Below are positions 12,264 through 62,781 of a stretch of DNA of 64,000 nt, piece after piece (the stretch's first letter is position 1; each line of letters begins with the position of its first letter). The stretch is from an uncultured Alphaproteobacteria bacterium (GTDB taxonomy: Bacteria; Pseudomonadota; Alphaproteobacteria; HIMB59; GCA-002718135): positions 48,782 to 112,781 of the forward strand of contig CACJSL010000001.1 of assembly GCA_902596065.1 (NCBI GenBank). Reading direction: 5' to 3'. The notes beneath the pieces are model-generated. The model worked only from the letters and a program-made list of their open reading frames with translations, was not told where the DNA came from and made no database searches. The position numbers were made by a program, and so were the translations under genes.

Positions 12264-12266
12264 TCT

Positions 12267-29922: not shown

Positions 29923-29936
29923 CAAGAAAAATTCAA

Positions 29937-39728: not shown

Positions 39729-39729
39729 A

Positions 39730-39891: not shown

Positions 39892-39962
39892 ATGAAAATG
39901 CTATAGAAAAAAAAATTAATAATGTCTACGATAATTGTATAGAATGGATAAATCTAAAACTT

Positions 39963-40802
39963 CTATAACTGGAAATAAACAATACTAATTCCCATGACTA
40001 TTAATATGGAAGGGATAATTCTCTTTTTTGCCTCTTTTTCAGCTAAAAATAATAACCCAATAATTGTTGCAATAACTATACTTATTTCTCTAATACTAGA
40101 CACATAGGCAATTTCAATAAACTGCATTCCCCACACAACCAACGCATAACTACTCGTTGCAAAAAATCCAGCTGCAATTCCAGATTTAATGGTATATGAA
40201 TTCCTATCTCTAAGACCTTTTTTTGAAAAAATTGAAATGATTAAAAGAGGTACTCCGTTCAAGGCAAATAACCAGAATATATAAGTAAAACCATTTTCAG
40301 CTTTTCTTACTCCAATACCATCCACTAAAGTATATAGTGTGATTAATACTGCTGTAGATAATGCTAAAAAAAAAGCGGCTCTATTAAATTTTATTTTTGA
40401 TGAAAATGAAATCAAAAATAAACCTAGGCAAACTATTATTATGCCTCCAAAACCGTATGTATTAATAGAGGTTGATAAAAATATAATACTAAAGAGAGCA
40501 ATTAAAAGTGAAGAGCCTCCTCTAGCTATAGGATAAACAAATGATAAATCTCCATATTTATAAGAATAAATAACATTCAATCTATAGAGTACGTGAATGA
40601 TTACTGTTGCTAATAAAAAAAACCAAATTTCTAAAGTAGGAAAAGGAACATAAAAAGTGAGAGGAATAAAAATTATAATTTCCATCAAAGAAGTTATGCC
40701 CATTAAAGATAAAGGATTAGAACTTGATTTTATAATAGCACTCCATGTTGCATGAAATAGAGCTGATAAAAGAATTAATAAGAAAATAAAATTAATTGTC
40801 AA
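39963..40802 (-). CDS. DMT superfamily (EamA) transporter, paralogue of 53597-54472
   Basis: 10-TM profile. Shares YPIARG, YTLVDGIGVRKAENGFTYIFW and IAYVSSIREISI blocks with the other copy. Confidence 0.8.
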   Translation of the reverse strand: MTINFIFLLILLSALFHATWSAIIKSSSNPLSLMGITSLMEIIIFIPLTFYVPFPTLEIWFFLLATVIIHVLYRLNVIYSYKYGDLSFVYPIARGGSSLLIALFSIIFLSTSINTYGFGGIIIVCLGLFLISFSSKIKFNRAAFFLALSTAVLITLYTLVDGIGVRKAENGFTYIFWLFALNGVPLLIISIFSKKGLRDRNSYTIKSGIAAGFFATSSYALVVWGMQFIEIAYVSSIREISIVIATIIGLLFLAEKEAKKRIIPSILIVMGISIVYFQL

Positions 40803-40830
40803 AATGTTGCTTTCATCAATTAAGTATTTA

Positions 40831-41724
40831 TTACTTCATTCCAGTCAGAGTAATTCCTTCGATAAATCTTTTTTGTGCTATTATGAAAGCAACAATTAAG
40901 GGAACCGTGACAGTAACAATTGATGCCATCATTGGTCCAAATTCATCACTATCTATTCCTCCTCTAAATTCTCTAATTCCAAGAGGGGGAGTAAATAGAT
41001 CTCTATTTCCAGTTATAACCATTCTTGGCCAGAAATAATCATTCCAGTGTGCTACAACTGAGAATATTGCAAATGCAAGTAAAGCAGGTATTGCAGTTGG
41101 TAGCATGACTTTCCACACAATAGAATATTCTCCCATTCCATCCATTCTGGCGGCATCAATTAATTCATCTGGAACTGTCATAAAAAATTGTCGCATAAGA
41201 AAAATTCCAAATACAGATATTGTCCAGGGGAGTATTAAGGCGGAATAGGTATCAACTAGCCCGGCCTGGGCCAGCATTACATAAAGAGGAAGTGCAATGC
41301 CGTGCACTGGTATTAGAAGACAAAACAATACCATTGAAAATACAAATTCCCGTCCATAAAACCGGAGTTTTGCAAGCGCATAAGCACAAGGTAAGGCAAC
41401 AAGAACTTGAATTATAAAAATTGATAAAGTTACTATAACTCCATTCATTAAGTATCTAGGAATTGGAGCTTTCTCAAAAGCAAACCAGTAATTATAAATA
41501 TAAGGTTTTGTCGTACATGTTTCTTCGGAATAACCCGTTTTTACACAAACCGGAAATGTTTGAACTTCTTGTGCACCAATTAGCCCACCAGAAATCGATT
41601 GAATTTCTTGTTGAGATTTTAGTGACATTGAAACCATCATATAAAATGGCAGTAAAACAAGGATTGCACCAATTATTAAAATGCCGTGTTTCCAACTCTC
41701 ACCTATATACTGTTTAGCTTGCAT
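40831..41724 (-). CDS. CUT1-type ABC transporter permease (UgpE-like)
   Basis: EAA loop DELIDAARMDGMGEYSIVWKVMLP. Confidence 0.85.
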   Translation of the reverse strand: MQAKQYIGESWKHGILIIGAILVLLPFYMMVSMSLKSQQEIQSISGGLIGAQEVQTFPVCVKTGYSEETCTTKPYIYNYWFAFEKAPIPRYLMNGVIVTLSIFIIQVLVALPCAYALAKLRFYGREFVFSMVLFCLLIPVHGIALPLYVMLAQAGLVDTYSALILPWTISVFGIFLMRQFFMTVPDELIDAARMDGMGEYSIVWKVMLPTAIPALLAFAIFSVVAHWNDYFWPRMVITGNRDLFTPPLGIREFRGGIDSDEFGPMMASIVTVTVPLIVAFIIAQKRFIEGITLTGMK

Positions 41725-42680
41725 TAATAGTGAACCCTCTTCTCAATGATATACCTCTGAAAAAAAGTTAATATCAATATAAAGCCAATAAAAACAACAG
41801 TAATAGCTGCTCCAATACTCGTTAAGTTTTGTTGGATAGCTTTTTCAAAAATTGCATACATCATAACGTAGGTAGTTTTAGAGGGGCCGCCTTTAGTAAG
41901 TATTTCAATTGTATCAAAAACTTGAAATGTTCTGATTGTTGTAATTGTTACTACAAACAAAGTTGTGGGTCCAAGCATTGGCCAAGTTACAAGTTTAAAT
42001 TGCTCCCATGTTGATTTAGCGCCATCCATTTCTGCTGCTTGATATAGTTCACGAGGTATCCCTGTTAGGCCTGCTAAATACAAAACCATATTAAAACCAA
42101 ATGCTTGCCAAATTCCTATAAAACATATCGTCCAAATTGCTGTATTTTTTTGCTTTAGCCAATAAGGAAAATCCATATTATTTGCACATGCTACATGATA
42201 CCAGCTTTGTTGTGAATCTACCCATGGTAACCAATGAAAACCAAAAATAAACTCTCTTGCGCCTCCACAACCATTAGCTAAAAAACTATTCACTATACCG
42301 AGTGTTGGATGAAGAGTGAATTCCCATGCAATAGCCATAGCAAGAAGGGTCGCCATAACAGGAAGAAAGAAAATTGTTTTATAAATATCAGCTCCAAATC
42401 TAAGTGAATTTAAGAGCATTGCTGCACACAAACCAAGTACAACTGAAATAGGTACAACAACTATTACATAGGTTGCTGTGGCCCAAATCATTTTCACATA
42501 TGTTTTTCTTGAAAACATTTTTTCATAATTTTCAAGCCCTATCCATTCAAGAGATTTATTACCTAAATTATAATCAGTAAAAGAAATTCCCCCAGCAAGA
42601 AACAATGGAAAAATTAATATAATAATCATTAGTATTATTGCAGGTGCAATAAACCAAATATGTGCTTTGGAATTATGCAT
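41724..42680 (-). CDS. CUT1-type ABC transporter permease (UgpA-like)
   Basis: EAA loop ELYQAAEMDGAKSTWEQFKLVTWP. Confidence 0.85.
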   Translation of the reverse strand: MHNSKAHIWFIAPAIILMIIILIFPLFLAGGISFTDYNLGNKSLEWIGLENYEKMFSRKTYVKMIWATATYVIVVVPISVVLGLCAAMLLNSLRFGADIYKTIFFLPVMATLLAMAIAWEFTLHPTLGIVNSFLANGCGGAREFIFGFHWLPWVDSQQSWYHVACANNMDFPYWLKQKNTAIWTICFIGIWQAFGFNMVLYLAGLTGIPRELYQAAEMDGAKSTWEQFKLVTWPMLGPTTLFVVTITTIRTFQVFDTIEILTKGGPSKTTYVMMYAIFEKAIQQNLTSIGAAITVVFIGFILILTFFQRYIIEKRVHY

Positions 42681-43806
42681 TATTAAATTGAACCCTTTTA
42701 CCTTCTTGGTTAAACAATAGTGCTTTATTAGGAGCTCTTTTAATGTTTACTGTTGAACCATTAGAAATTTCATGTGTTAATTGAGGTATGCCTCTAACAA
42801 TAATTCTATTCATCCCATCTTCCGTATTTACATGAAAAAAAATATCTGATCCTAAATTTTCTCTGTAAGAAACTTTTGCACTAAAAGTATCTTCATCACT
42901 TTGATTGGAAATTTCTAAATGTTCAGGTCTAATACCAATATTTAACTCTAGATTTGTTTCTGAACTTTTTCTTTTTAAGTTTAGATTTAGTAAGTTTACA
43001 GTTCCGCTTGAATCTGATGAACCTTTAAAAATATTAATTTTAGGACTTCCAACGAATTGAGCCACACTTAGTGAGGAAGGATTATCATATACTTCTTGAG
43101 GAGTATCAAGTTGTAATAAATTTCCATCAATCATAACAGCCATACGAGAAGACATCGTTAATGCCTCCGCCTGATCATGAGTAACGTATACAAAAGTAGT
43201 TTTAAGTGAACTATGAAGTTCAGATAATTCGGAGCGCATATGAACTCTAAGCGCTGCATCTAAATTTGATAACGGTTCATCCATCAAAAAAGCAACAGGC
43301 TCTCTTACCATTGCCCTACCAAGAGCCACTCTTTGTCTTTGACCACCAGATAGTTGACCTGGTTTTCTATCAAGTAGTTCAGAGATTTTAAGTGTTTCAG
43401 AAGTTTTACTAACCAATTGATTTATAGATTCTGTTTTTTGTTTTTTATTCGGAGATAAATTTCCAATTAAAGGCAATCTTTCAAATGAATTGTAATCTCT
43501 AAGCCTTAAAGGAGTTTCTAAATTTCTTCTTACTGAAAGATGAGGATAGAGAGCGTAAGACTGAAACACCATTGCCAAGTCTCTTTCACTAGCTCTAATT
43601 TTATTTACGTTTTTATTATCAATTAAAACATCACCAGAAGTTTGTTGTTCAAGACCGGCTATAATTCGAAGTAAGGTAGATTTGCCACAACCAGATGGGC
43701 CAACTAATGTTAAAAATTCACCGTCTTTTATATCTACACTTAAATCTTTTAATACCTCTGTGGATCCAAATGATTTTGAAATATTTTTAAGTGATATTGT
43801 GCCCAC
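42673..43806 (-). CDS. ABC transporter ATP-binding protein (UgpC/MalK-like)
   Basis: GPSGCGKST, LSGGQRQRVALGRA, FLMDEP, C-terminal regulatory/TOBE domain. Confidence 0.9.
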   Translation of the reverse strand: MGTISLKNISKSFGSTEVLKDLSVDIKDGEFLTLVGPSGCGKSTLLRIIAGLEQQTSGDVLIDNKNVNKIRASERDLAMVFQSYALYPHLSVRRNLETPLRLRDYNSFERLPLIGNLSPNKKQKTESINQLVSKTSETLKISELLDRKPGQLSGGQRQRVALGRAMVREPVAFLMDEPLSNLDAALRVHMRSELSELHSSLKTTFVYVTHDQAEALTMSSRMAVMIDGNLLQLDTPQEVYDNPSSLSVAQFVGSPKINIFKGSSDSSGTVNLLNLNLKRKSSETNLELNIGIRPEHLEISNQSDEDTFSAKVSYRENLGSDIFFHVNTEDGMNRIIVRGIPQLTHEISNGSTVNIKRAPNKALLFNQEGKRVQFNNA

Positions 43807-43969
43807 AGAACCTCTCTTTTTTTTAATATATACTTTTTATAAAATTTTATGATTTTTTAAATGCATTTATTTCATTTTTATCTAAATTTTATGGACAAAT
43901 ATTCAAATTACTATTGAGTTTAAATAACATATAACTATAAATTCAATTTTTTAACTATATATAATCATT

Positions 43970-45211
43970 GTGACTGAAAATTTATTAATTAACAATAGAG
44001 AATATCCAAGTATATTTTCAAAGACAGCTATAGTTATTTGTCTTGATGGAAGCCAAAAAGAATATCTTGAAGAGGCATCAAAATCAAATCTGACACCTAA
44101 TCTTGACTCATTAATTGCAAGTGGTCAAAATTTATTAGTTCACAGTGCTATACCTAGCTTCACAAATCCAAATAATATTTCAATTGTGACAGGGCAGCCT
44201 AGTTCTGTTCACGGAATATGTGGTAACTTTTTTTACACTCCTGAAACGGGTGAAGAAGTAATGATGAATGATCCAAAATATATGCGTGCTCCAACAATTT
44301 TTGAAAAATTTTATAATTCTGGCTCAAAAATCGCTCTTGTTACTGCAAAAGATAAACTTAGAACCCTTTTGGGAAATGGTTTAAGTTTTGATAATAATCG
44401 AGCAATATGTTTTTCTGCAGAAAAATCTGATCAGGCAACAAAAGAACTTAATGGTATAGAAAATGTTAATGACTGGTTAGGTATGCCGGTGCCAGAAGTG
44501 TACTCCGAAGGTCTTTCTGAGTTTGTCATGGCCGCTGGAGTAAAACTACTAAAGGAATTTAAACCAGACATTATGTATTTATCTACGACTGACTATATTC
44601 AACACAAGTATGCACCTGGAAATGAAATAGCAAATAAGTTCTATGCAATGTTTGATAAATATATTGGCCTTTTAAATAAAGAAGACGTATCAATGATAGT
44701 AACAGCTGATCATGGAATGAAATCTAAATCAAAAGAAGACGGTTCACCTAACGCGATATTTTTACAAGATTATCTTGATAAAAAATTTGAACCGAACTTA
44801 ACAAAAGTCATCTTACCAATCACAGATCCGTATGTAGTTCATCATGGATCATTAGGTTCATTTGCTACAATTTATCTTGAAGATAAAACTAAAGTCAACG
44901 ATGTTATTGAATCAATTAAAGCAATTAAAGATATAGAAGTAGTCTTAACTAAAGACGAAGGTTGCTCAACATATAATCTTCCTCCAGATAGAATGGGAGA
45001 TATAATATGCATGTCTTCTGAATTTATGACAATTGGATCCTCTTTAGATAAACATAATCTTTCTGGATTAAATGAGCCTTTGCGTTCCCATGGTGGTTTA
45101 CATGAGCGAGAAGTACCTTTTATTTCAAATTTAAAAATACAAAATTTAAATAATGAAAAACAGTTATATAATTATGATGCATTCTATTATGCAATCAATG
45201 GAGCTTTATGA
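43970..45211 (+). CDS. phnA: Phosphonoacetate hydrolase (alkaline phosphatase superfamily)
   Basis: [35 protein letters not shown] (Thr nucleophile region), [44 protein letters not shown]. These closely match what I recall of Pseudomonas fluorescens PhnA. GTG start. Confidence 0.9.
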
Positions 45212-46650
45212 TGGAAAAGAAAATTATTAATGAAGCTATGCGCATTGCTGGCAAAAAAGTAAATTTTGAAAAAACAATTGATGTTGAATATCCATTTACA
45301 GGAGAAGTAATTGGTACAGTTCCTGCAGGAAATGCTGAGCATGCAAAACAAGCTCTTGAAATTGCTGCAAACTATCAACCTAAGTTGACACGATATGAAA
45401 GACAAAAAATACTTCAAACCGCAGCTGAGGTACTTGTAAAAAGAAAAGAAGAGATTTCTGACATCATTACCTTAGAACTTGGAATTTCAAAACAAGACTC
45501 ATTGTATGAAGTAGGCAGAGCATTTGATGTTTTTTCTTTAACCGCACAACTTTGTATTCATGATGACGGAGAAATTTTTTCTTGTGATTTAACTCCACAC
45601 GGAAAAGCGAGAAAAATATTTACAATAAGAGAACCATTAACAGCAATTTCGGCAATTACACCATTTAATCACCCTTTAAATATGGTGGCACATAAAATTG
45701 CACCTTCAATTGCAACGAATAATTGTACTGTTTGTAAGCAGACTGAGTTAACTCCATTAACAGCAATGGTTCTTGCTGATGTTTTGTATGAAGCTGGTTT
45801 GCCGCCAGAAATGTTTTCTGTTGTTACAGGATGGCCGCAAGATATCGGCTCTGAAATGATAAAGAATCCAAATATTGATCTTATTACTTTTACTGGAAGT
45901 GTTGGTGTTGGAAAACTAATTGCTGAACAAGCAGGATACAAAAGAACTGTCCTTGAACTTGGTGGAAATGATCCTTTAATAGTTTTAAATGATTTAGATC
46001 CAGATGATTTAAAGAAAGCAGTTGAATTAGCAGTTACTGGAGCAACAAAAAATTCAGGACAACGATGTACAGCTGTTAAAAGAATACTTTTGCAAGAAAA
46101 AATTGCTGATCAGTTTGTTGAAATGGCTTTGGAAAGAGCAAAAAAAATTAAATTTGGTGATCCAATGAGTATGGAAACTGACTTAGGCACTGTTGTTAAT
46201 GCTCAAGCAGCGGAATTATTTGATAAAAGAGTTTCAATGGCAGAGGCAGATGGTGCAAAAATCTTATATCACCCTGGAAGAAAAGGTGCGTTATTGCCTC
46301 CTATAGTAATTGATAATGTTGATCCAAAAAGTGAACTTGTTCTTGAAGAAACATTTGGCCCAGTTATCCCTATTATTAGGGTTCCCAATGATGATGAATC
46401 GGTAATCAAGATTTCAAACTCAACTGCTTTTGGATTATCTTCAGGTGTATGCACCAATAATTTTATGAGAGCTAAAAAATATATTCAAGGTCTTAATGTT
46501 GGAACTGTAAATATCTGGGAAGTACCTGGTTACAGAATTGAAATGTCCCCTTTTGGAGGAATTAAAGATTCTGGCTTAGGCTACAAAGAAGGCGTAATAG
46601 AAGCGATGAAGAGCTTTACTAATGTAAAAACATTCTCACTTCCTTGGTAG
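45208..46650 (+). CDS. phnY: Phosphonoacetaldehyde dehydrogenase (ALDH superfamily)
   Basis: ELGGNDP catalytic Glu, GQRCTAVKR catalytic Cys; ATGA overlap with phnA. Confidence 0.8.
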
Positions 46651-46819
46651 TTTCCTAGAAAAGAAGAGTATTTACTATTAAATAATAATAAATACATATA
46701 AAAAATATAATCAAATTTTACTTTCAAAATGACTTTACTGTTTGTATCCTTTTTAAGACTATTATATCATTAATTAGTTAAACGAAGTTTTAAGGTTTAA
46801 TTATACAGTGGAGGATTAA

Positions 46820-48073
46820 ATGAGAAAATTAATTACAGGATTAGCAGCCGTATTAGCTTTTGGTTTCTATGGTTCTGTTAATTCAGCGAAGTCTATAGAA
46901 ATAGAAGTAGCTTATCCTTATTCAGGTTTATTTGATGTTACCTATCAAGCTATTATGCCTGAGTTTGAAAAAGCTCATCCAGATATTCAAGTAAAATTTA
47001 GAGCAACTTATGAAAACTATGAAGATGCTACTGCTACAATTTTAAGAGAAGCAACTTCTGGTAATCTACCAGATGTTACAATGCAGGGTCTTAACAGACA
47101 AGCTCCTCTAGTAGACAAAGGTATTGCAAAATCTTTAGAGCCATTTATTGCAAAAGAAGCTGATTTTGAAAAAGATGGTTATCATGCTGCAATGTTAAGT
47201 CTTTCAACATTTGGAGGAGAGGTTTATGGTTTGCCATTCTCTGTATCAACTCCTGTTGGATATTATAACATGGATTTATTAGCTGAAGCTGGCATAGACA
47301 GCATCCCAACTAACTGGGATGAAGTTATTGATGCTTGTGGAAAATTAGAGGCAGCTGGAAAAGGTACTTTATATTTTGGTTGGAACATTACAGGTAACTG
47401 GTTCCACCAAGCATTAATGCATACTCAAAATGTAAAAATTGTTGAAGATGGAAAAGTAAACTTAGGTGGAGACGCTGGTTTAGCAACATTACAACAAATG
47501 CACGATATTATGAGTGGATGTAACATGCCTAACTATTCAATTGCTGATGGTCAAGCTGCATTTAATGCAGGCACGATCGGTATGATGTTCTGGTCAACTT
47601 CAAGCTTAGGTTCAGTAAATGCTGCAAAAGCAGATTTCGTACTTAAGACAGCTCCATTCCCTGGAATGGCAGGTGTTAATAATGGAACCCCAGCAAGATT
47701 ACCAGCAGGTGGAAATGCAGCAATGTTAACTTCTACTTCTGATGATCCAGCAAGAGTAGACGCAGCATGGACATTCTTGAAGTTCATTACTTCTGGTATT
47801 GGAGCAGCATTAGTTGCTGAGACTACTGGTTATGTTCCACCAAACAAAGCAGCTAACGATTTATTAGGTGATTTCTATAGTGCAAATCCAAATAAACTTA
47901 CTGCGGTAGAACAGCTTCCACTCTTAGCAGACTGGTTTGCATATCCTGGTGAAAACGGACTAGCAATCACTCAAGTAATTTATGATTACACTGAAGAAAT
48001 TGCCACAGGAAGTGCTGATGATATGGCAGATCTTCAAGAAGAAATGATGGAAGAAATCAACGATCTTTTATAA
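46820..48073 (+). CDS. ABC transporter substrate-binding protein, family 1 (UgpB-like)
   Basis: Signal peptide, family 1 SBP architecture, strong SD GGAGGA. Likely partner of the permeases at 40831-43806. Confidence 0.85.
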   Translation: MRKLITGLAAVLAFGFYGSVNSAKSIEIEVAYPYSGLFDVTYQAIMPEFEKAHPDIQVKFRATYENYEDATATILREATSGNLPDVTMQGLNRQAPLVDKGIAKSLEPFIAKEADFEKDGYHAAMLSLSTFGGEVYGLPFSVSTPVGYYNMDLLAEAGIDSIPTNWDEVIDACGKLEAAGKGTLYFGWNITGNWFHQALMHTQNVKIVEDGKVNLGGDAGLATLQQMHDIMSGCNMPNYSIADGQAAFNAGTIGMMFWSTSSLGSVNAAKADFVLKTAPFPGMAGVNNGTPARLPAGGNAAMLTSTSDDPARVDAAWTFLKFITSGIGAALVAETTGYVPPNKAANDLLGDFYSANPNKLTAVEQLPLLADWFAYPGENGLAITQVIYDYTEEIATGSADDMADLQEEMMEEINDLL

Positions 48074-48103
48074 TAAAGAATACTTTATTATTAACTTTTT
48101 ATT

Positions 48104-48135
48104 ACAGCGGCTTTATAAAAGCCGCTGTTTTATTT
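48104..48135 (+). terminator. Rho-independent terminator
   Basis: ACAGCGGCTTT-ATA-AAAGCCGCTGT 11-bp stem followed by TTTATTT. Confidence 0.8.
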
Positions 48136-48157
48136 CAAATAAAAGGGAGAATAAATA

Positions 48158-49237: not shown

Positions 49238-49241
49238 TAGA

Positions 49242-50354: not shown

Positions 50355-50355
50355 A

Positions 50356-51168: not shown

Positions 51169-51194
51169 ATTTAAAAAATATTTTAAATGAATAA

Positions 51195-51824: not shown

Positions 51825-51835
51825 AAATATTACTT

Positions 51836-52936: not shown

Positions 52937-53034
52937 ATTCTTAATTGAGTTAACTATTTAATTCTTAATTAGCTCACTAGCAATTAAATAAAAAATTGAT
53001 TTGCAATTTTTCTTGAAAGTTGTATTTTTTCTAA

Positions 53035-54472: not shown

Positions 54473-54493
54473 AATTTATAATAAATTTGTTAT

Positions 54494-55537
54494 TTAGTTT
54501 TTTGGCTCAGTTTTGCCATCATATCTTTTTTTCCATTCAGCAACTATACGATCTTTGTTTGCCGCTGCCCAAACAAAATCATTATCAATTAATTTTGCTT
54601 GCACTTCGTCATAAAAATCAGGAAGTTCTGGATCTTTAGTTACTTTAGAAGGATCAGCAATAATTGATTGTCTTTGCCCGAATAATTTCATTCCTTCTCC
54701 CAAAGTCCAATCCATTAATGTTTTTGCATCTTCAAGATTATCTGTTCCTTCCATTATAGCCACTACTTGCATTTCCCAACCAATTCCTTCTTCAGGAATA
54801 ATCATATCAATTGGAGCACCAGCTTTAATAACTTTAATTGCTCTACCAGGCCATGAGATACCAATTGCAAATTCACCAGCCCCTGCTTGCTTACAAGGTT
54901 TAGAACCAGAGTGAGTATACACACCTATATTTTCATGTAGTGCATCCATATACTCCCACGCTTTATCTTCACCCCATATTTGCATCCAACTAGATGCATC
55001 CAAGAAACCAGTTCCAGAGGAAGCTGGATTTGGCATAGAAATATGACCTTTATAAATTGGATCAGTTAACTCTGCCCAAGTTGTTGGTTTAGGTAAACCA
55101 AGTTTTTCTGCCTCAATGCGGTTCCAGCAAATACAACCTGCCCAGCCATAATTTCCAACCCAAGTTACAGGTGCAGATTTATCAACATATCGTTGATCAA
55201 TCGCATCCATACCTTTTGGAGTATATTCAACAAACATACCTTCTGCTTCCATATTTAAAGCAACAGTTGCAGCCATCTCAAATAAGAAATCAGCTTGTGG
55301 GTTATCTTTTTCTGCCATCATTTTTGCTGCCATTGTTCCAGTTGATTCACGAACAACGTTAACTTTTATATCGGGATGATCTTTTTGAAATTCATCCATG
55401 TAATATTTAAGATTATCTGCATCAGTACTAGAATATACTAAAAGCTCACCAGCATTAGCTAGATAGCTAAATGTAGATAAAGATATAAAAATTAAAACAG
55501 CACTTAGTGTGTTTAAAATTTTTTTTATTAAAAACAT
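54494..55537 (-). CDS. Putative 2-aminoethylphosphonate ABC transporter substrate-binding protein (PhnS2/AepX-like)
   Basis: Signal peptide, Fe3+/2-AEP-type SBP fold; divergent from the ATPase/permease genes. Confidence 0.78.
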   Translation of the reverse strand: MFLIKKILNTLSAVLIFISLSTFSYLANAGELLVYSSTDADNLKYYMDEFQKDHPDIKVNVVRESTGTMAAKMMAEKDNPQADFLFEMAATVALNMEAEGMFVEYTPKGMDAIDQRYVDKSAPVTWVGNYGWAGCICWNRIEAEKLGLPKPTTWAELTDPIYKGHISMPNPASSGTGFLDASSWMQIWGEDKAWEYMDALHENIGVYTHSGSKPCKQAGAGEFAIGISWPGRAIKVIKAGAPIDMIIPEEGIGWEMQVVAIMEGTDNLEDAKTLMDWTLGEGMKLFGQRQSIIADPSKVTKDPELPDFYDEVQAKLIDNDFVWAAANKDRIVAEWKKRYDGKTEPKN

Positions 55538-55736
55538 AAAATTACCTCCAAATTTAAATGTTATCTTTTATTTAAAAAATGTGATTAAATTTAAACATAT
55601 ATATGACCTATTTGTTAACAATTAATTACAAATTTTGATATTATTTTGAGTATAAGAAGATATAGTATTTTTCAATTTGGCCAAAAACTAATATATTTTA
55701 CTAATACATTTGATTAACTAAAATTTATAAAATTTT

Positions 55737-56816
55737 ATGACTGAACAAAAAAACAATACTTATCTTGCAGTTAATAATTTATCTAAATCTTTTGGTAATT
55801 TTGAAGCCATTAAAAATATAGGAATAGATATAAAAGAAGGTGAGTTTGTTTGTTTTCTTGGACCTTCTGGTTGCGGTAAAACAACTTTACTGCGATGTAT
55901 AGCAGGATTGGAAACACAAACTTCTGGATCTGTTATTCAAAAAGATATTGATATTTCACATGAACCTCCATCCAATAGAGATTTTGGAATTGTCTTTCAG
56001 TCTTATGCATTATTTCCAAACCTTTCTGTTTTTTCTAACATTTCATATGGATTAATAAATAATAAATGGAAAAAAGATGACATCAAAAAAAGAGTAGATG
56101 AATTGCTTGATCTGGTTAATCTTACAGAGCATGCATCAAAGTATCCAAGTCAATTATCTGGTGGGGAACAACAACGAGTAGCTTTAGCTAGAGCTCTTGC
56201 TACATCACCTGGATTATTATTGCTTGATGAGCCTCTTTCCGCACTAGATGCAAAAGTAAGAGTTTTTCTAAGAAAACAAATAAGAGATTTGCAAAGAAAA
56301 CTTGGAGTAACTACTATTATGGTTACTCATGACCAAGAGGAAGCCCAAACAATGGCGGATAGAATATTTGTTATGAATGAGGGTGAAATTATTCAGTCTG
56401 GAACACCTAGTGAAATTTATACAAAAGCTAATTCACCTTTTATTGCTTCTTTTATTGGAAGTATGAATTTTATACCTGCAACAATTGATAGTTCTAAAAA
56501 AGTGAAGTGTAACAATATTGAAATAAATTGTGATACAAGCTCTTTTACAGAAAATGATTCTGTGCAATTAGCTGTAAGACCTGAAGAAATTTATTTTAAA
56601 CAAGAAAACCAAGATGATAATGTTATATCTGCTACAATAAAAGAAATAGAATTTTTGGGTTCTTTTCAACGAGTCTATTTTGAAGCAAAGAGTTTTAGTA
56701 ATGAGTTGATCATAGTAGATGTCCCAAGTGCAAACGCTAGAAAAATTAAATTAATTATTGACGAAGAAATAAATTTGTATTTTTCCAAACAAGATGCACG
56801 AATTTATTCAACTTAA
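55737..56816 (+). CDS. Putative 2-aminoethylphosphonate ABC transporter ATP-binding protein
   Basis: GPSGCGKTT, LSGGEQQRVALARA, LLLDEP, TOBE-like C-terminus. Confidence 0.85.
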   Translation: MTEQKNNTYLAVNNLSKSFGNFEAIKNIGIDIKEGEFVCFLGPSGCGKTTLLRCIAGLETQTSGSVIQKDIDISHEPPSNRDFGIVFQSYALFPNLSVFSNISYGLINNKWKKDDIKKRVDELLDLVNLTEHASKYPSQLSGGEQQRVALARALATSPGLLLLDEPLSALDAKVRVFLRKQIRDLQRKLGVTTIMVTHDQEEAQTMADRIFVMNEGEIIQSGTPSEIYTKANSPFIASFIGSMNFIPATIDSSKKVKCNNIEINCDTSSFTENDSVQLAVRPEEIYFKQENQDDNVISATIKEIEFLGSFQRVYFEAKSFSNELIIVDVPSANARKIKLIIDEEINLYFSKQDARIYST

Positions 56817-56819
56817 ATT

Positions 56820-58523
56820 ATGAATTTATTAAAGTTTGGCAATATTCGTAGAGGAAAAGACTCAAGTGATAGAGTTGGGCAATTTATGCTCATATCATAT
56901 ATCATTCTTTTTTTAATATTCTTAGTTTTACCCTTAGTAGCATTAATTTCAAAAAGTTTACAAAATAAAGAGGGTGAATTTATAGGTTTGGCAAACTATA
57001 ATTTATATCTTCAAGAACCAGCATTATTTCAATCACTTTTTAATAGTTTGTTTGTTGCTATTAGCTCTACAATTATAGTTGTTATATTAGCCTTTTTATT
57101 TTCATATGCGCTTACGCGTACATGTATGCCTTTTAAGGGATTTTTTAAATTAATAGCTTTAATACCTTTATTAAGTCCTTCTATTCTAGCGGCTATTGCA
57201 CTTGTGTATTGGTTTGGAAATCAAGGAGTTTTAAAAGAAGTTCTACTAGGGAAATCCATATATGGCCCAATTGGTATTATTATGGCTTCAGTCTATTGGA
57301 CTTTTCCGCATGCTCTTATAATTTTAACCACTTCTTTATCCTTATCAGACTCGCGATTATATGAGGCAGCTGAAGTATTAAAAACTTCTAAACTTAGAGC
57401 ATTTTTTACTATTACAATTCCTGGAGCAAGATATGGAATTATTAGTACTGCTTTTGTAATTTTTACCCAAGTGTTTACAGACTTTGGTGTTCCCAAAGTT
57501 ATTGGAGGAAATTACAATGTGCTTGCTACAGATATTTATAAAGAAGTTGTTGGTATGCAGAATTTTCAAATGGGAGCTGTAATCTCAATGGTTTTATTAG
57601 TTCCTGCCATGATCGCTTTTTTTATTGATCGTTATTCAAGAAAAAAACAAATTTCTTTGCTTACTGCCAGGTCAGTTGTTTTTAAGCCAAAAAAACATTT
57701 TAAAGTTGATATGATTATGCTCGCCTTTTGTTCGGCGCTAGCATTAATCATTATATTGATGATTGGGATGGCACAATATGGTGCAATAGTAAAATTTTGG
57801 CCTTACAATTTAAATCTTACTTTAAAAAATTATAATTTTGAAGTTGCTGGACTTGGGTGGGATTCTTTTTATAATTCAGTCCGATTAGCTTTTTATGCAG
57901 CAGTATTTGGGACCATTATTATTTTTGTAGGCGCTTATTTAATTGAAAAATTAAGAATTAATGAAGGGACAAGAAATGTAGTACAATTTTTTGCTCTAAT
58001 GCCCATGGCTGTACCTGGATTAGTATTAGGTCTAGCTTACATTTTTTTCTTTAACGCAAAAGACAATCCATTAAACTTTATTTATGCAACTATGATTATT
58101 TTAGTAGTTAATACTATTGTTCATTTTTATACAGTATCCCACTTAACAGCTGTAACAGCTTTAAAACAAATGGATAAAGAATTTGAATCTGTTTCCTTAT
58201 CTTTAAAAATACCTATTTATAAAATGTTTTGGCGTGTTACCTTGCCCGTTTGTTTGCCTCCTATCTTTGATGTTTCTATTTATTTATTTGTTAATGCTAT
58301 GACAACAGTTTCGGGTGTAATCTTTCTTTACTCTTATGATACTACCTTAGCGTCAGTCTCAGCTATTCATTTGGATGAACAGGGTGAAGTTGCTAAAGCG
58401 GCAGCTATGGCCATGTTAATCGTATATGTTTCTATTGCTGTGCGATTAACGCATACAATTATTACAAAAAAAATATTGAGAAAAACTCAGGCCTGGCGCT
58501 ATAATATTATTGATACAAGTTAA
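56820..58523 (+). CDS. Putative 2-aminoethylphosphonate ABC transporter permease (fused two-domain)
   Basis: 567 aa with duplicated permease domains, as in single-permease PhnU2/AepW-type systems. Confidence 0.85.
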   Translation: MNLLKFGNIRRGKDSSDRVGQFMLISYIILFLIFLVLPLVALISKSLQNKEGEFIGLANYNLYLQEPALFQSLFNSLFVAISSTIIVVILAFLFSYALTRTCMPFKGFFKLIALIPLLSPSILAAIALVYWFGNQGVLKEVLLGKSIYGPIGIIMASVYWTFPHALIILTTSLSLSDSRLYEAAEVLKTSKLRAFFTITIPGARYGIISTAFVIFTQVFTDFGVPKVIGGNYNVLATDIYKEVVGMQNFQMGAVISMVLLVPAMIAFFIDRYSRKKQISLLTARSVVFKPKKHFKVDMIMLAFCSALALIIILMIGMAQYGAIVKFWPYNLNLTLKNYNFEVAGLGWDSFYNSVRLAFYAAVFGTIIIFVGAYLIEKLRINEGTRNVVQFFALMPMAVPGLVLGLAYIFFFNAKDNPLNFIYATMIILVVNTIVHFYTVSHLTAVTALKQMDKEFESVSLSLKIPIYKMFWRVTLPVCLPPIFDVSIYLFVNAMTTVSGVIFLYSYDTTLASVSAIHLDEQGEVAKAAAMAMLIVYVSIAVRLTHTIITKKILRKTQAWRYNIIDTS

Positions 58524-58547
58524 TAGGTAAAATGGAATAATCCAATC

Positions 58548-59075
58548 ATGGCAATGCAATTAATTGATTATGTTCAACCAAAAGATGTAAAAGGAAAAAT
58601 ATTTTTAACCTGTTTTCCAGGAAGAAATGGAGAAAAAATTTCTTTTGAGGAAAATATTTTTTTAAAAGAACTAAATAATTTTTCCTCTCTAAATTCTAAT
58701 ACGGTCGTAACTTTGGTAGAGGATAATGAAATTGAAAAACTTTGTGATAAAAAGTTTTTTGTTCGAAAAATTTATTCTCATAATTTTAAATGGATACATA
58801 TGCCAATTGTAGATTTAAAATCCCCTGATCATAAATTTATGGATAAATGGCAAACAACAAAAGTATTATTAAAAAATGATTTAATAGAAGGAAAGAATAT
58901 TATTTTGCATTGTATGGGAGGCAAAGGACGTACAGGTACAATTGCCGCTATTCTCTTAATTGAGTTTGGGGAAAAACATGAAGAGGCTATAAAAATTGTT
59001 AGAGAAAAAAGAAAAGGCGCTATTGAAACAAAAGAACAAGAAGATTTTATTTTTTCTTATAGGCCTGTAGCTTAG
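58548..59075 (+). CDS. Cys-based phosphatase, dual-specificity/PTP-like (CX5R)
   Basis: HCMGGKGRTGT P-loop (HCX5R[ST]); 24 nt after the permease stop. Confidence 0.75.
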   Translation: MAMQLIDYVQPKDVKGKIFLTCFPGRNGEKISFEENIFLKELNNFSSLNSNTVVTLVEDNEIEKLCDKKFFVRKIYSHNFKWIHMPIVDLKSPDHKFMDKWQTTKVLLKNDLIEGKNIILHCMGGKGRTGTIAAILLIEFGEKHEEAIKIVREKRKGAIETKEQEDFIFSYRPVA

Positions 59076-60124
59076 TAATTTACGGTTAAATTAAAAATAT
59101 TTTGTAACACAAATAAAATTATAAAAGATATTAATGCTGCAAGGATTGGCAACAAAACCCAACCCATAGAAATTTTCCTTGCAATTGTCCATTGTACTTC
59201 TTTTCCACCTTTTAATAATCCTATACCAATTACACCACCCACGACTGCTTGAGAGCTTGATACCGGAACAAGAGGAATTGAGGGTAAATTAATTGACTGA
59301 AGAAAATTACTAATACCTTGAGAGGCAAATAGAAATAAAACGATAGAATGAGCTAGTACAACGATAAAAGCGGCTACAGGTGACATCTTTAACAAATCAT
59401 TTCCAACAGTAAACATTACTTTTTTAGAATAAGTAAAAACACCAACTGCTATAGCAATACCACCTAATAGAAAAAGTTGCTCTTTGGACGAGAAATTAAA
59501 ATCATTTAAAATATTAATATCAGTAAAAGGTGAGATAGGGACAAAAACCCCCATTACATTAGCAATGTTATTAGCTCCTAGACTGTACGCTCCAAAAGCA
59601 CCGGCTAATAAAAGAGCTGCTCTCGTATATGCGTCTAATCGCAGAATATGTAATTTTGCTTTTTGTAGAAAATTTTTTGTTATTACAAAAAAAAGCATTG
59701 AAAGCAAACCAGCAATAATAGGACATAAAACCCAAGTCCCTAAAATTGTAATTAAAACTTGAATATTGGTTGAAGATCCAGTGTACAAGTTCCATCCTAT
59801 AATAGCGCCAACAATTGCCTGCGTTGTTGAAACAGGAAGACCAGATTTTGTCATTATATATACTGAGAGTCCCGCAGCAACACATGCAGCAAAAGCTCCA
59901 GGCAATGCATTGATTGATCCGAGCTTGCCCAGTGTTTCGGTTGTTCCAGATCCACTAATAATAGCTCCTAAGATTACAAATATACTACAAACAATTGCAG
60001 CAGTTTTAAATTGTACCATGCGCGTGCCAACCGCAGTTCCAAAAACATTAGCTGCATCATTGGCTCCTAAAGACCATCCTAGAAATAATCCTCCTAAGAG
60101 AAAAATAATAATTGTTAATTCCAT
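59072..60124 (-). CDS. pit: Inorganic phosphate transporter, PiT family
   Basis: GANDAANVFGTAVGT and GANNIANVMG repeats, GLPVSTTQAIVGAIIG. Confidence 0.9.
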   Translation of the reverse strand: MELTIIIFLLGGLFLGWSLGANDAANVFGTAVGTRMVQFKTAAIVCSIFVILGAIISGSGTTETLGKLGSINALPGAFAACVAAGLSVYIMTKSGLPVSTTQAIVGAIIGWNLYTGSSTNIQVLITILGTWVLCPIIAGLLSMLFFVITKNFLQKAKLHILRLDAYTRAALLLAGAFGAYSLGANNIANVMGVFVPISPFTDINILNDFNFSSKEQLFLLGGIAIAVGVFTYSKKVMFTVGNDLLKMSPVAAFIVVLAHSIVLFLFASQGISNFLQSINLPSIPLVPVSSSQAVVGGVIGIGLLKGGKEVQWTIARKISMGWVLLPILAALISFIILFVLQNIFNLTVNY

Positions 60125-60131
60125 AAATTAA

Positions 60132-60794
60132 TTAAACTGATCTTTTGATAGCGTAGATCTGAATTTCATCTGAAATATCTTCTGCTTGATCACAAATACG
60201 ATCAATTTTTTCAACAAAATAACGTAGATGCATTTTTTGATCCAAAGAAAGATTAGAATCAAAAATTTTTCTCGCCAAAGAACTAAATTTTATATCAGAT
60301 TCTTTTTCATAAAATGTCACTTTGTGTGCATTGTCTCTAACAGATTTAATATCTCTAAAAAACGATCTTACTGTTAAACATAGTGCCTCTACACAATTTA
60401 CTACAGTCTCTGTTAAATCAATTAAATCGTCATGAAACTCTTTTGGAAAATTTGGTTTTTGAATAGAGAAATGATAACAATTACCTTGATACATTCCAAT
60501 AACTTCATCAAGATGTTCAAGAACTCTTAATACATCACTTCGAGCATCGGGAATTAATGTTTCTTCATATAAGGTGTGTTCCACTTCTTTGGTTATTTTA
60601 TCAGCCTTACTTTCCATTAATTTAACTTGTTCGACCATTTCATCGAATTTGCCATTGGCAGAACTAGATAAATATGTTGGAATAATAGACTTAAATACCA
60701 AGCCTACTTCAGAGAGAATATCAACAAATTCGTCTATTTCTCTCTCTAATTTTTTGGTTTCACCAAATAAAGATGTACTTTTTAATCCAAACAT
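60132..60794 (-). CDS. DUF47/PhoU-like phosphate transport regulator (PiT accessory)
   Basis: All-helical 220-aa protein immediately upstream of pit in the typical pairing. Confidence 0.78.
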   Translation of the reverse strand: MFGLKSTSLFGETKKLEREIDEFVDILSEVGLVFKSIIPTYLSSSANGKFDEMVEQVKLMESKADKITKEVEHTLYEETLIPDARSDVLRVLEHLDEVIGMYQGNCYHFSIQKPNFPKEFHDDLIDLTETVVNCVEALCLTVRSFFRDIKSVRDNAHKVTFYEKESDIKFSSLARKIFDSNLSLDQKMHLRYFVEKIDRICDQAEDISDEIQIYAIKRSV

Positions 60795-60921
60795 TTGGTG
60801 CTTATAGAACTTTTATTAAAAAAATAAAGCTATGTTACATTTTTGTTACAAACTCGTAGTTTTTCAAATTTTAGCAATGTATAAAATATAAAGTTTTATC
60901 ACTTTATATTAGGGAGAAAAA

Positions 60922-61152
60922 ATGAGTTCTATGTCGTTAAATCAGCTAAAGTGGTTTAGCACTGTCTTAGTTTTATTTGGTATTTTATTAACGAATTTAA
61001 ATTATTATCCTTTAAATATATTTAGTCATGGCCTTGGAGCAGTAGGATGGTGCATGGCTGGATTTATAGCAAAGGACAAGGCACTGCTAACAAATTTTGG
61101 ATTACAAATTCCTCTTTTTATAATTGGGTATTTTAACTATTTTCTTATTTAA
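60922..61152 (+). CDS. Small membrane protein (2-3 TM), unknown function
   Basis: Good SD (AGGGAGA) 7 nt upstream, hydrophobic profile. Confidence 0.45.
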   Translation: MSSMSLNQLKWFSTVLVLFGILLTNLNYYPLNIFSHGLGAVGWCMAGFIAKDKALLTNFGLQIPLFIIGYFNYFLI

Positions 61153-61210
61153 TATTTAAATAGTCATAATAAAACAATTTGTATAAAAGAGCTTTATCTA
61201 AGAAATTTCT

Positions 61211-61699
61211 ATGGAAAAATTGTGGTATAAAAAAAAATCTCGCCTACATGGATCAGGATTATTTGCTCTCAGTAATATTAAAAAAGGTGAACAAGTAATT
61301 GAATATATAGGTGACAAAGTAACTAAAAAAGAAGGCGATAAAAGAGCTGATAAACAAATAAAAAAAGCTGAAAAAAATAAAAAAAATGGAATGGTCTATG
61401 TTTTTGAGCTCAATAAAAAATATGACATTGATGGAGGAGTACCTCGAAATTATGCACGTTTTATCAATCACTCTTGTGATCCAAATTGTGAAGTAGAAAT
61501 AACCAATAATCATATTTGGATATCATCAATTAAAAGAATTAAAAAAGACGCAGAATTAACATATAATTATGGCTATCCCTTTGATAGTGATTTTGAAGAT
61601 CATATTTGTAAATGTGGATCTAAAAAATGTGTAGGGTATATTTTGAGTGATGATGACTGGCCTAAATTAAAAAAAGAATTAAAAAAGAAAAAAAAATAA
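61211..61699 (+). CDS. SET-domain protein (putative lysine methyltransferase) with post-SET Cys cluster
   Basis: SRLHGSGLFA, RFINHSCDPNC, ELTYNYGY, CKCGSKKCVGY. Confidence 0.85.
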   Translation: MEKLWYKKKSRLHGSGLFALSNIKKGEQVIEYIGDKVTKKEGDKRADKQIKKAEKNKKNGMVYVFELNKKYDIDGGVPRNYARFINHSCDPNCEVEITNNHIWISSIKRIKKDAELTYNYGYPFDSDFEDHICKCGSKKCVGYILSDDDWPKLKKELKKKKK

Positions 61700-61703
61700 T
61701 TTT

Positions 61704-62666
61704 TTAAAATCCATTTGGAATGAAAATGTAATGAATGGATAAAACAATTCCAACCGATACAGATAATCCAAAAATCATTTTTAAAAAATCTTTTCCAATT
61801 AATGGAAAAACATAACGAAGTTTATAATTTTTATTCATGGTCGCTATTGCTAATTCTCTACCGCACAGTAATCCAACAAAAACCCAAGTAGTTGACATCG
61901 GAATGTCATTATACTGTTTAAAATAGAGAAGTATTATTGCATATATAAAATCAATAATAGTTGCAGACCTAGTATATCGGGTTCCTGTTTTTGAGTAGAC
62001 TATTTTTTGAATACGCCCCCCTCTATCCCAAAAAATATAAAACAGAAGTACACTCAATAAAATAATGCAGACGATTAATAAATTTACAGGTAATTGACGT
62101 GGAAGAAAAACAGCAATATTAGCAACATCATGACTAAGCCATGTGTACCATAGAAATCCAGTTGTACACCACTGTCCAATCACCCAAGCTCTTCGGTGAT
62201 TATCTTTTACTTTATCAAATTTTTCATTAATAAAATAACTAACTGCTAACCAAACAATATAAGCAACCATAGCAGCTAAACCATAGCCAACAACTGATTT
62301 CATTAAAACTTTTTCAAGAACAACAGTTGAGGCAAAAGCAGATAGGACTAGAAAAGTTGTGGAGACAGGAATTCCAACTCTTGTAAGTATAACAAGTATT
62401 AATGGAGCAGCAGCATGGTACCATTGAATTGTTTGAAAAGGAATTTTATTGAGACGTCCAAAAGTAATATCACCATCATTAACACTCCACCCATAAATTA
62501 AGGTAAAGGCAAGTACTGTAGAGGCTGCGGTAGCTAACCAATACCATTTGAAGCGTTGGTTGGAAGCCATAAATGTACCAAGTGTTTGTACTGAGTCATT
62601 TGCAATAACTGAATATGCCGCTAGACTAAAGCCAATAATGGTATAAATTAATGTGAGGTCCATCAT
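61704..62666 (-). CDS. Divergent PiT-superfamily-like membrane protein
   Basis: Two-repeat pattern: IANDSVQTLGTF plus GIPVSTTF, then SHDVANIAVF plus DIPMSTTW. This echoes the GANDxAN and PVSTT signatures of PiT. Confidence 0.55.
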   Translation of the reverse strand: MMDLTLIYTIIGFSLAAYSVIANDSVQTLGTFMASNQRFKWYWLATAASTVLAFTLIYGWSVNDGDITFGRLNKIPFQTIQWYHAAAPLILVILTRVGIPVSTTFLVLSAFASTVVLEKVLMKSVVGYGLAAMVAYIVWLAVSYFINEKFDKVKDNHRRAWVIGQWCTTGFLWYTWLSHDVANIAVFLPRQLPVNLLIVCIILLSVLLFYIFWDRGGRIQKIVYSKTGTRYTRSATIIDFIYAIILLYFKQYNDIPMSTTWVFVGLLCGRELAIATMNKNYKLRYVFPLIGKDFLKMIFGLSVSVGIVLSIHYIFIPNGF

Positions 62667-62781
62667 TTATCTAATAATCGTGAACTAATTGAATAAAAAT
62701 AGATTCGTCTATTATTTTTTTGCATAATTAAGCCCTAAAATACATTTATACAAATCACTTATCACAATGTAAAATTGTCTT

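Follow-up and report, generated by a model that had tools for sequence, protein, structure and literature searches.

A probable pst- and phoBR-less version of the flexible HIMB59 phosphorus island with exchangeable phosphonate cassettes

Gene content of the island

The stretch of DNA analysed here (the window, W; 64 kb of contig CACJSL010000001.1 from an uncultured alphaproteobacterium, ~30% G+C) contains 23 open reading frames (ORFs) at positions 39963-62666, spread over nine strand blocks and including genes for phosphonate breakdown and phosphate transport. We consider this region, which lies between MFS/MsrPQ and murJ, likely to be a pst- and phoBR-free version of the flexible phosphorus island that the order HIMB59 carries.

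Protein families were assigned from domain calls in Pfam and from the curated model cut-offs of NCBIfam, to which all statements of a score above or below cut-off refer. Matches to these models placed the genes named in a preliminary description of the window where it had located them, and six proteins—PhnA, PhnY, PhnW, PhnS2, PhnT2 and PhnU2—scored above the curated cut-off. The same description had regarded nearly every ORF as a phosphorus-acquisition function, which holds for the 19 of 23 ORFs with phosphorus-linked transport or catabolic homology but not for four genes without a known phosphorus role, namely an AllA-fold cupin, a single-domain MetE-like protein, DUF6552 and a SET-domain protein. 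It had overlooked two EamA (‘phn_DUF6’) proteins, whose best model, TIGR03340, is named ‘phosphonate utilization associated putative membrane protein’ in NCBIfam, and its six changes of transcription direction, giving seven units, have to be revised to eight changes of strand. The absences that it listed extend beyond the island: profile searches detected no C-P lyase, phnX, pst, phoU, phoB, phoR, other LysR/GntR/PhoB-type regulator or 2-oxoglutarate (2OG) hydroxylase anywhere in the 64 kb. The features of the region are the following, with bit scores given against the model cut-off where one applies.

39730-39891, minus strand: zf-CHCC zinc-finger gene (53 amino acids) just left of 39963; overlaps the FYDLN_acid ORF at 39372-39794, both being conserved flank genes in relatives
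39963-40802, minus strand: EamA/DUF6 membrane protein, left backbone gene; best match TIGR03340, 150 bits versus 288
40831-41724, minus strand: UgpE-like permease, 128 bits versus 297; segment 1
41724-42680, minus strand: UgpA-like permease, 102 bits versus 335; segment 1
42673-43806, minus strand: UgpC-like ATPase, 392 bits versus 432; segment 1
43970-45211, plus strand: PhnA, phosphonoacetate hydrolase; TIGR02335, 467 bits versus 407.6
45208-46650, plus strand: PhnY, phosphonoacetaldehyde dehydrogenase; TIGR03250, 788 bits versus 635.7
46820-48073, plus strand: substrate-binding protein of the CUT1 family; SBP_bac_1/SBP_bac_8, UgpB 63 bits versus 411
48104-48128, plus strand: terminator-like hairpin 3′ of the binding-protein gene; 11-pair stem with 6 G-C pairs, followed by TTTATTT
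48158-49237, plus strand: single-domain MetE-like (‘core MetE’) zinc alkyltransferase, 359 amino acids; Meth_synt_2, 121 bits
49194-50354, plus strand: PhpC-type enzyme of the iron alcohol dehydrogenase (ADH) family; TIGR03405, 377 bits versus 423.7
50356-51168, minus strand: metallophosphoesterase resembling GpdQ and class-III phosphodiesterases; Metallophos, SpdA model 183 bits versus 400; backbone
51195-51824, minus strand: AllA-fold cupin; PF04115, 39 bits versus a gathering score of 23; backbone
51836-52936, minus strand: PhnW, 2-aminoethylphosphonate:pyruvate transaminase; NF010006, 524 bits versus 296; backbone
53035-53607, plus strand: HD-domain diiron oxygenase of the PhnZ/TmpB type; TIGR03276, 197 bits versus 214.6; start of segment 2
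53597-54472, minus strand: second EamA/DUF6 membrane protein; TIGR03340, 145 bits versus 288
54451-54472: hairpin downstream of PhnS2
54494-55537, minus strand: PhnS2 substrate-binding protein, putative for 2-aminoethylphosphonate (2-AEP); TIGR03261, 403 bits versus 392.8
55737-56816, plus strand: PhnT2 ATPase, 497 bits versus 457.7
56820-58523, plus strand: PhnU2 fused permease, 768 bits versus 593.3
58548-59075, plus strand: CX5R phosphatase of the dual-specificity/protein tyrosine phosphatase type; PTP-SAK and DSPc matches, HCMGGKGR motif; end of segment 2
59072-60124, minus strand: PiT permease, in an operon with DUF47; PHO4, 196 bits; backbone
60132-60794, minus strand: DUF47 (PhoU_div) protein; Pfam, 80 bits; backbone
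60834-60850, minus strand: Pho-box-like direct repeat TGTAACAAAAATGTAAC; the DUF47 start codon lies 40 bp downstream
60922-61152, plus strand: DUF6552 protein (Pfam); segment 3
61211-61699, plus strand: SET-domain methyltransferase (Pfam); segment 3
61704-62666, minus strand: PiT-related permease, 320 amino acids; Pfam PHO4, 17.8 bits versus 33.7; segment 4

A conserved backbone interrupted by four exchangeable segments

Sibling contigs were obtained by an exact-protein look-up with the DUF47 protein and compared with the window through per-gene identities and blastn breakpoints (L-numbers denote the related contigs or loci used in these comparisons). Contigs of the same population differ in island content. 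What they share is a backbone of EamA, metallophosphoesterase-cupin-PhnW, PiT-DUF47 and DUF6552/SET, which is 98-100% identical among siblings and whose genes were seen in every related locus; DUF47 and PiT reach 99-100% across all sibling contigs, and the left EamA is 98-99% identical in L069 and L081, both of which are without the adjacent cassette. The breakpoints of the alignment with L069 (W 40829/43987, 46654/50292, 53584/58710 and 61697/62724) outline the segments in which the contigs part.

Segment 1 (W 40829-50292) is present here in a long form that comprises the UgpEAC-like genes, phnA-phnY and the genes for the CUT1 binding protein, the MetE-like protein and the PhpC-type enzyme. 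Its short form in siblings consists of a divergent phnA′-phnY′ pair alone: the Ugp-like stretch W 40829-43987 is missing from L069, PhnA is 81-82% identical in genomes without the flanking cassettes, and PhnY is 90% identical in L067, L069 and L081 and 100% identical in L070. Segment 2 (approximately W 53035-59075) is likewise long in the window, with the HD oxygenase, the second EamA protein, PhnS2, PhnT2-PhnU2 and the phosphatase. The short form, HD′-phosphatase′, combines an HD allele of merely 74-78% identity, found where the transporter cassette is missing, with a phosphatase of 58-60% identity; W 53584-58710 is absent from L069, and the second EamA gene from L067, L069, L070, L072 and L074. 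Segment 4 (W 61697-62724) holds the 320-residue PiT-related permease in the window.

Segment 3 is minimal here, a bare DUF6552-SET pair, between whose genes relatives carry either an ArsC-like gene with a MIP channel or a glycosyltransferase with a metallophosphoesterase. The former pair (L007:1137-2279, equivalent to L069:8497-9639), whose ArsC-like member has an arsenate reductase as its best NCBIfam match (112 bits, below cut-off), has the look of a pair for arsenate detoxification that accompanies the pst block; entry of arsenate through Pst would fit such a pair. The latter, at L012:6469-8278 (minus strand) and with a metallophosphoesterase of 270 amino acids, is presumably akin to the PlcP/Agt pair with which marine bacteria remodel lipids under phosphorus starvation.

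The borders are shared. The conserved left flank consists of SBP_5, MsrPQ, MFS, FYDLN and zf-CHCC genes and the conserved right flank of murJ and the Trp-tRNA synthetase gene; this arrangement, with murJ and zf-CHCC/FYDLN/MFS/MsrQP at opposite ends, was found in the window, L001, L069, L161 and L162. The apparent gap at 39795-39962 is not empty but contains most of the zf-CHCC gene. Both halves of the window arrangement recur in public assemblies, L162 matching W 31724-52679 at 99.2% and L068 matching W 50132-64000 at 98.6%.

Searching one genome per species for the flanking MurJ yielded 61 loci, drawn from GORG single-cell genomes (‘uncultured Alphaproteobacteria’) and from ‘MarineAlpha5’ and ‘HIMB59-LRMED’ metagenome-assembled genomes. 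Since all 61 are HIMB59-type genomes, the organism belongs to HIMB59/AEGEAN-169, formerly SAR11 clade V, and not to Pelagibacterales proper, which had been put forward as a group for comparison. The earlier proposal of a flexible, mosaic phosphorus island, by contrast, is borne out by contigs that are 98-100% identical in their backbone genes and carry different combinations of cassettes. Homologous recombination in the backbone is presumed to bring about the exchange.

A swappable slot beside murJ

In L069, W 61697-62724 is replaced by a ~7.0 kb block of phoR-pstS-pstC-pstA-pstB-phoU-phoB. Across 58 informative related species genomes, the slot on the murJ side is occupied by the pst/phoBR block in 44, by the PiT-like gene in 13 and by nothing in one; all pst-bearing relatives examined have phoBR and pst at the island locus. 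Regulator and pst are thus missing here because the slot beside murJ holds the PiT-like gene and not phoR-pstSCAB-phoU-phoB. The preliminary description was right that the island contains no regulator, but this is the state of one swappable slot rather than a property of the locus.

The occupant of the slot had been described as a second, divergent PiT-like protein. Its match to PHO4 (Pfam E 0.0017) falls under the threshold, a BLASTP alignment with the island PiT spans 110 residues (E 8e-7) and includes ANDxxxxxGT and G(I/L)PVSTT motifs common to both, and hhalign gives a probability of 70%; the AlphaFold2 model is of low confidence (predicted local distance difference test, pLDDT, 37). These values lend the assignment weak support.

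In pst-type genomes (L007:2413-2910 and 2879-3916; also L069 and L067), the SET gene and phoR lie on the same strand and share 32 nt, so that SET apparently heads a SET-phoR-pstSCAB-phoU-phoB run. From this arrangement, a link of the SET methyltransferase to phosphate signalling is possible.

Relation to the published HIMB59 phosphate island

A flexible phosphate-related genomic island (fGIp) with a conserved position throughout the order HIMB59 has been reported, its versions correlating with ambient phosphate and its exchange being proposed to proceed by homologous recombination (Molina-Pardines, Haro-Moreno and Lopez-Perez, mSystems 2023; PMC10734472). The region described here agrees with the fGIp in order and in conserved position and borders, its content varies among close relatives while its function stays phosphorus-related, and the window and its relatives together draw on the optional genes of the fGIp: the SET methyltransferase, PhoR/PhoB, pstSCAB-phoU, GlpF (MIP), Wzb (LMWPc) and a glycosyltransferase with an ‘LpxH’-like esterase. 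(The paper labels the ArsC-like/MIP pair Wzb/GlpF and the glycosyltransferase/metallophosphoesterase pair RfaG/LpxH.) Because the paper names no border genes, equivalence with the fGIp rests on shared island content.

As the fGIp was published in 2023, the reading as an island is right but known in kind. Two features depart from the published account. All fGIp versions are stated to contain the pst operon, whereas the window has no pstSCAB-phoU; and the paper’s phosphonate island consists of C-P lyase at another site, whereas here phosphonate genes of the hydrolytic and oxidative kind directly adjoin the phosphate island and are themselves polymorphic as cassettes. The text of PMC10734472 yielded no match to phnW, phnA, phnZ, phosphonoacet- or aminoethylphosphonate, so that a version lacking pst and phoBR, and the polymorphism of phosphonate cassettes, are absent from the published description. 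For one family, the same paper reports no other phosphorus genes outside the island.

Candidate phosphonate routes

PhnW, PhnY and PhnA, all above their curated cut-offs, constitute the complete enzyme set of the described PhnW-PhnY-PhnA route for 2-AEP (PMC13576164, PMC10574752), with phnA and phnY overlapping and co-oriented as in that system. In contrast to it, phnW lies here in a separate unit on the opposite strand, together with the cupin and the esterase, and a LysR regulator is lacking. For the metallophosphoesterase, the nearest solved structure is GpdQ (2ZO9, 2DXL; E 4e-16).

The HD oxygenase is nearer to TmpB (6NPA, E 2.8e-33) than to PhnZ (4MLM, E 2.4e-26). Alignment to 6NPA and 4N71 revealed that it keeps the H...HD...H...H...D diiron ligands and the YxxE substrate loop, which are features of PhnZ/TmpB (PMC8177086). 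In PhnY*/PhnZ and TmpA/TmpB, such an oxygenase works with a hydroxylase partner encoded close by (PMC8177086); no 2OG-dependent partner of this kind (PhnY*/TmpA) was found within the 64 kb.

The permease/ATPase cluster at 40831-43806 has no binding protein of its own, and the binding protein at 46820-48073 is its likely partner. Three contigs span both regions (the window, L161 and L162), and in each of them the Ugp-like genes co-occur with the binding-protein, MetE-like and PhpC-type genes. UgpAEC- and UgpB-like transport had been noted before; the ATP-binding cassette (ABC) genes are there and belong to the CUT1 family, but UgpB, UgpA, UgpE and UgpC score 63, 102, 128 and 392 bits against equivalog cut-offs of 411, 335, 297 and 432. 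The nearest solved structures of the binding protein bind sugars or glycerol-3-phosphate.

The iron ADH (start probably at 49242, giving the 370 residues called in relatives) lies in the same plus-strand block as phnA-phnY, three genes downstream. It matches TIGR03405 far better (377 bits, below cut-off) than any other model, including those for choline and lactaldehyde dehydrogenase (152 bits or less), and is a candidate PhpC-type 2-hydroxyethylphosphonate (HEP) dehydrogenase. Enzymes of this type oxidise HEP to phosphonoacetaldehyde, thereby feeding PhnY/PhnA or PhnX (Piazza et al., Protein Sci 2026; PMC13576164). The HEP clusters of that study share with the island an iron ADH of the phosphonate-cluster family adjoining phnY-phnA and transporter genes. 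They differ in that here a MetE-like gene stands between binding protein and ADH (neither ‘MetE’ nor ‘methionine synthase’ occurs in the paper’s text) and in that phnW is part of the same island, an arrangement that the paper calls less common. Three interleaved enzymes had earlier been thought to have no described role; this remains so for the cupin and the MetE-like protein but not for the iron ADH, whose putative PhpC-type role was described in 2026 (PMC13576164). The island thus does hold genes outside any described pathway, as had been anticipated.

The MetE-like protein is devoid of the folate-binding N-terminal domain of two-domain MetE and keeps the zinc-ligand positions HxC, E and C (alignment to 3RPD). 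In this it resembles the ‘core’ methionine synthases, which take the methyl group from other donors (PMC7857596). Its homologues in other lineages again follow a CUT1 ABC system and are found near a phosphonate-linked ADH, either a zinc ADH (TIGR03366, 295 bits) or an iron ADH (TIGR03405, 421 bits), and also near PhnD, DUF47-PiT or NaPi-PhoU, often with a LysR gene. These neighbourhoods suggest that thiol-dependent alkyl transfer may be tied to the HEP branch; an action of the protein on O-methyl phosphonates is speculation.

In HIMB59 relatives, the position between esterase and phnY is in some cases taken by a homocysteine S-methyltransferase (PF02574), unrelated to the MetE-like protein, or by a 370-residue ORFan. 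Insertions of the former were observed at L067:12012-14118 and L082:4278-5183, one of them in the slot of the MetE-like gene, and thus two unrelated zinc-/thiol-dependent methyltransferase families alternate in a phosphonate context. The conserved ORFan (L001:11523-12635, minus strand, and 11 further metagenome loci), located between the metallophosphoesterase and phnY, fills the place taken in the window by the PhpC-type, MetE-like and binding-protein genes, and has no sequence match in Pfam, NCBIfam or PDB.

An AllA-fold cupin next to phnW

Homologues of the cupin number >5,000 in marine data; exact-protein look-up returned no match, and a 99% relative exists. Its AlphaFold2 model (pLDDT 85) is closest in fold to 2BDR and 1XSQ (AllA), and the motifs NYHPDGGQ and WH(E/Q) are nearly invariant. 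The protein is nonetheless set apart from AllA by equivalog scores of 20-32 bits against cut-offs of 160-315, by 50 additional residues and by a different gene context. Within the marine clade, phnW is directly upstream of the cupin in 18 of 23 loci; among relatives at ~50% identity, phnW lies within 400 nt in 3 of 38. The tie to phnW is limited to the marine clade. An association of the whole family with phosphonates was rejected, as the ~50% relatives stand beside epimerases, short-chain dehydrogenases/reductases (SDRs), a hydantoinase, a dehydratase and an M20 peptidase. The idea of an Fe/2OG-type hydroxylase replacing PhnY* was reduced to speculation: H118, D120 and H168 are conserved, H163 is not, the motifs are AllA-like and fold searches return AllA first.

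A phnW-cupin pair (82% and 67% identity) occurs in a different setting at L004:6627-8371, surrounded by two OpuAC-type ABC systems, GlpABC-like flavoproteins, a HAD hydrolase (possibly PhnX), a choline-kinase-like gene and an SDR. Such a neighbourhood may mark a locus for quaternary-amine phosphonates.

Pho-box-like repeats and intergenic regions

From the pstS and phoB promoters of relatives, we derived the lineage Pho box TGTAAYA-N4-TGTAAYA. The repeat at 60834-60850 is the sole zero-mismatch match to TGTAAY-N5-TGTAAY in the 64 kb and is correctly oriented for DUF47-PiT; repeats of the same type precede pstS and phoB in relatives, and the repeat is conserved across species while the spacer around it diverges. 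The DUF47-PiT (orfA-pit) operon of Sinorhizobium meliloti is reportedly controlled by PhoB. Like it, the pair in the window is preceded by a Pho-box-like direct repeat; in contrast to it, the regulator cassette is missing from the island.

The preliminary description had raised the prospect of a motif shared by the divergent intergenic regions, and we found none beyond chance. Allowing two mismatches, the Pho-box pattern matched 46 times (43 expected), scans with a position weight matrix (PWM) gave no significant additional sites, and the best common 10-, 12- or 14-mer found de novo in the five intergenic regions was no better than in shuffled sequences. No comparable site precedes the phnA, binding-protein, phnW/HD or PhnS2/PhnT2 units. 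With the regulator cassette swapped out and a Pho-box-like repeat only at DUF47-PiT, the catabolic operons are predicted to be PhoB-independent, that is, the phosphonate units would not be under PhoB.

A second Pho-box-like repeat, CTGTAACAAATCTGTAATA, was observed in the spacer between the PiT-like gene and murJ in a species group of 81% identity (L012, L016, L050 and L060). It is half-deleted in L018, L026 and L066 and not recognisable in the window.

Discussion

From homology and gene order, we infer the following working scheme. 2-AEP would enter via PhnS2T2U2 and be converted by PhnW, with formation of alanine, to phosphonoacetaldehyde, which PhnY would turn into phosphonoacetate and PhnA would cleave to acetate and inorganic phosphate (Pi). 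An HEP-type substrate would enter via the CUT1 ABC system and join the PhnY/PhnA trunk through the PhpC-type dehydrogenase, the MetE-like enzyme perhaps acting immediately before that step. Ready-made 1-hydroxy-2-aminophosphonates would be cleaved by the HD oxygenase, esters would be opened by the GpdQ-like esterase and the CX5R phosphatase, and Pi would move via PiT/DUF47 and the PiT-like permease. Hairpins follow both binding-protein genes and would fit an expression of the binding proteins above that of the genes downstream.

A bolder proposal goes beyond this scheme. The MetE-like protein, the CUT1 importer and the HEP dehydrogenase might form an undescribed route that frees HEP from an alkylated or esterified form (for example, by passing the methyl group of an O-methyl phosphonate ester to homocysteine) ahead of PhnY/PhnA; the AllA-fold cupin might be a new accessory enzyme of PhnW; and some HIMB59 cells might be without any Pst or PhoBR. 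We offer this tentatively and consider it unlikely.

That the genes of the region are fixed core-genome genes which happen to cluster, with no island at all, is scarcely conceivable: backbone genes do occur in every related locus, but the four segments refute this view by presence/absence and allele replacement among contigs that are 98-100% identical elsewhere. It is also rather improbable that the CUT1 ABC/MetE-like/iron ADH module has nothing to do with phosphonates and instead serves a choline-, glycerol- or methyl-sugar-type compound, having merely landed at a hot spot of recombination. Its binding protein and permeases are indeed generic CUT1 proteins, the ADH stays under the TIGR03405 cut-off and also matches choline and lactaldehyde dehydrogenase models, and one Magnetovibrio context shows no clear phosphorus genes except an aldehyde dehydrogenase; yet the wide margin of the phosphonate-cluster model (377 versus 152 bits or less), the recurrence of MetE-like genes beside TIGR03366/TIGR03405 ADHs, PhnD, DUF47-PiT or NaPi-PhoU, and the nesting of the module around phnA-phnY, with whose matching allele it is inherited, all argue for a phosphonate role.

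Two further alternatives concern what the island is for and how it is controlled. It could mainly provide nitrogen and carbon from aminophosphonates, in a phosphate-insensitive mineralisation during which PiT and the PiT-like protein export or recapture surplus Pi. The version without pst and phoBR is the one carrying most phosphonate cassettes, PhnW yields alanine and the HD oxygenase glycine or a betaine, and Pi-insensitive use of 2-AEP is documented in marine bacteria (PMC8316502). Since published island versions track ambient phosphate (PMC10734472), and the esterases and the CX5R phosphatase are in keeping with scavenging of phosphorus, we hold this to be possible, though on the unlikely side. 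Alternatively, the island would be an ordinary member of the Pho regulon, all of its units being switched on under Pi starvation by PhoB/PhoR and pst encoded elsewhere. In favour of such control are the Pho-box-like repeat upstream of DUF47-PiT and the repeat in the PiT-like/murJ spacer of the 81%-identity group, which suggests that PhoB persists in genomes with the PiT-like version. We judge it unlikely, given that the other units have neither a comparable site nor a shared motif, that phoBR and pst sit at the island locus in the pst-bearing relatives, and that one family has no phosphorus genes outside the island (PMC10734472).

Several points weigh against our preferred reading, a flexible HIMB59 phosphorus island with PhoB-independent phosphonate cassettes. 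A PWM built without the site at 60834-60850 puts that site at the top of the 64 kb, yet 10 of 40 shuffles reach the same score, which makes the repeat a candidate rather than a proven site. The prediction of PhoB-independence draws on the lack of boxes in DNA so rich in A+T that a weak one could escape notice, and our view covers 64 kb of a genome that may carry a phoBR/pst copy elsewhere. PhnS2 has as its nearest solved relatives proteins binding sugar phosphates (AfuA, 4R72) and pyridoxal phosphate (6WCE), and NCBIfam labels PhnS2T2U2 ‘putative’. The PhpC-type, HD oxygenase and Ugp-like proteins fall below curated cut-offs, and their substrates are therefore not established; the cupin, MetE-like, SET and DUF6552 proteins are without assigned roles.

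A version lacking pst and phoBR would extend the published model, in which pst is part of every version. HIMB59/AEGEAN-169 ranks among the abundant streamlined bacteria in oligotrophic surface waters of the ocean, and phosphonates account for a large part of the dissolved organic phosphorus there. Otherwise identical cells that differ in whole transport and catabolic cassettes, the master regulator included, offer a concrete picture of phosphorus-source partitioning in streamlined populations. Through their consistent gene partners, the cupin and the MetE-like protein are targets for enzyme discovery of the ‘phosphonate breakdown factor’ type.

Other features of the window

The remainder of the 64 kb is of a housekeeping nature, with tRNA synthetases, folate genes, proteorhodopsin, FbpABC and MsrPQ. 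The proteorhodopsin-type gene (10826-11545, plus strand; Bac_rhodopsin, 154 bits) adjoins a sigma-70 family gene at 9794-10624. Within W 26257-30989, a gene of the fatty-acid-hydroxylase superfamily is immediately upstream of an FbpA-type iron ABC system whose ATPase is on the opposite strand. This system (27257-30989) was considered as an AepXVW-type 2-AEP importer and rejected, its binding protein being FbpA (iron; it matches 1Q35 at E 2e-86). The G+C content, ~31% elsewhere, falls to 22-27% at W 1-4000 and 12000-18000. The second of these stretches carries folate biosynthesis genes; the first, with a family-2 glycosyltransferase and a methyltransferase, is possibly the edge of a cell-envelope island.

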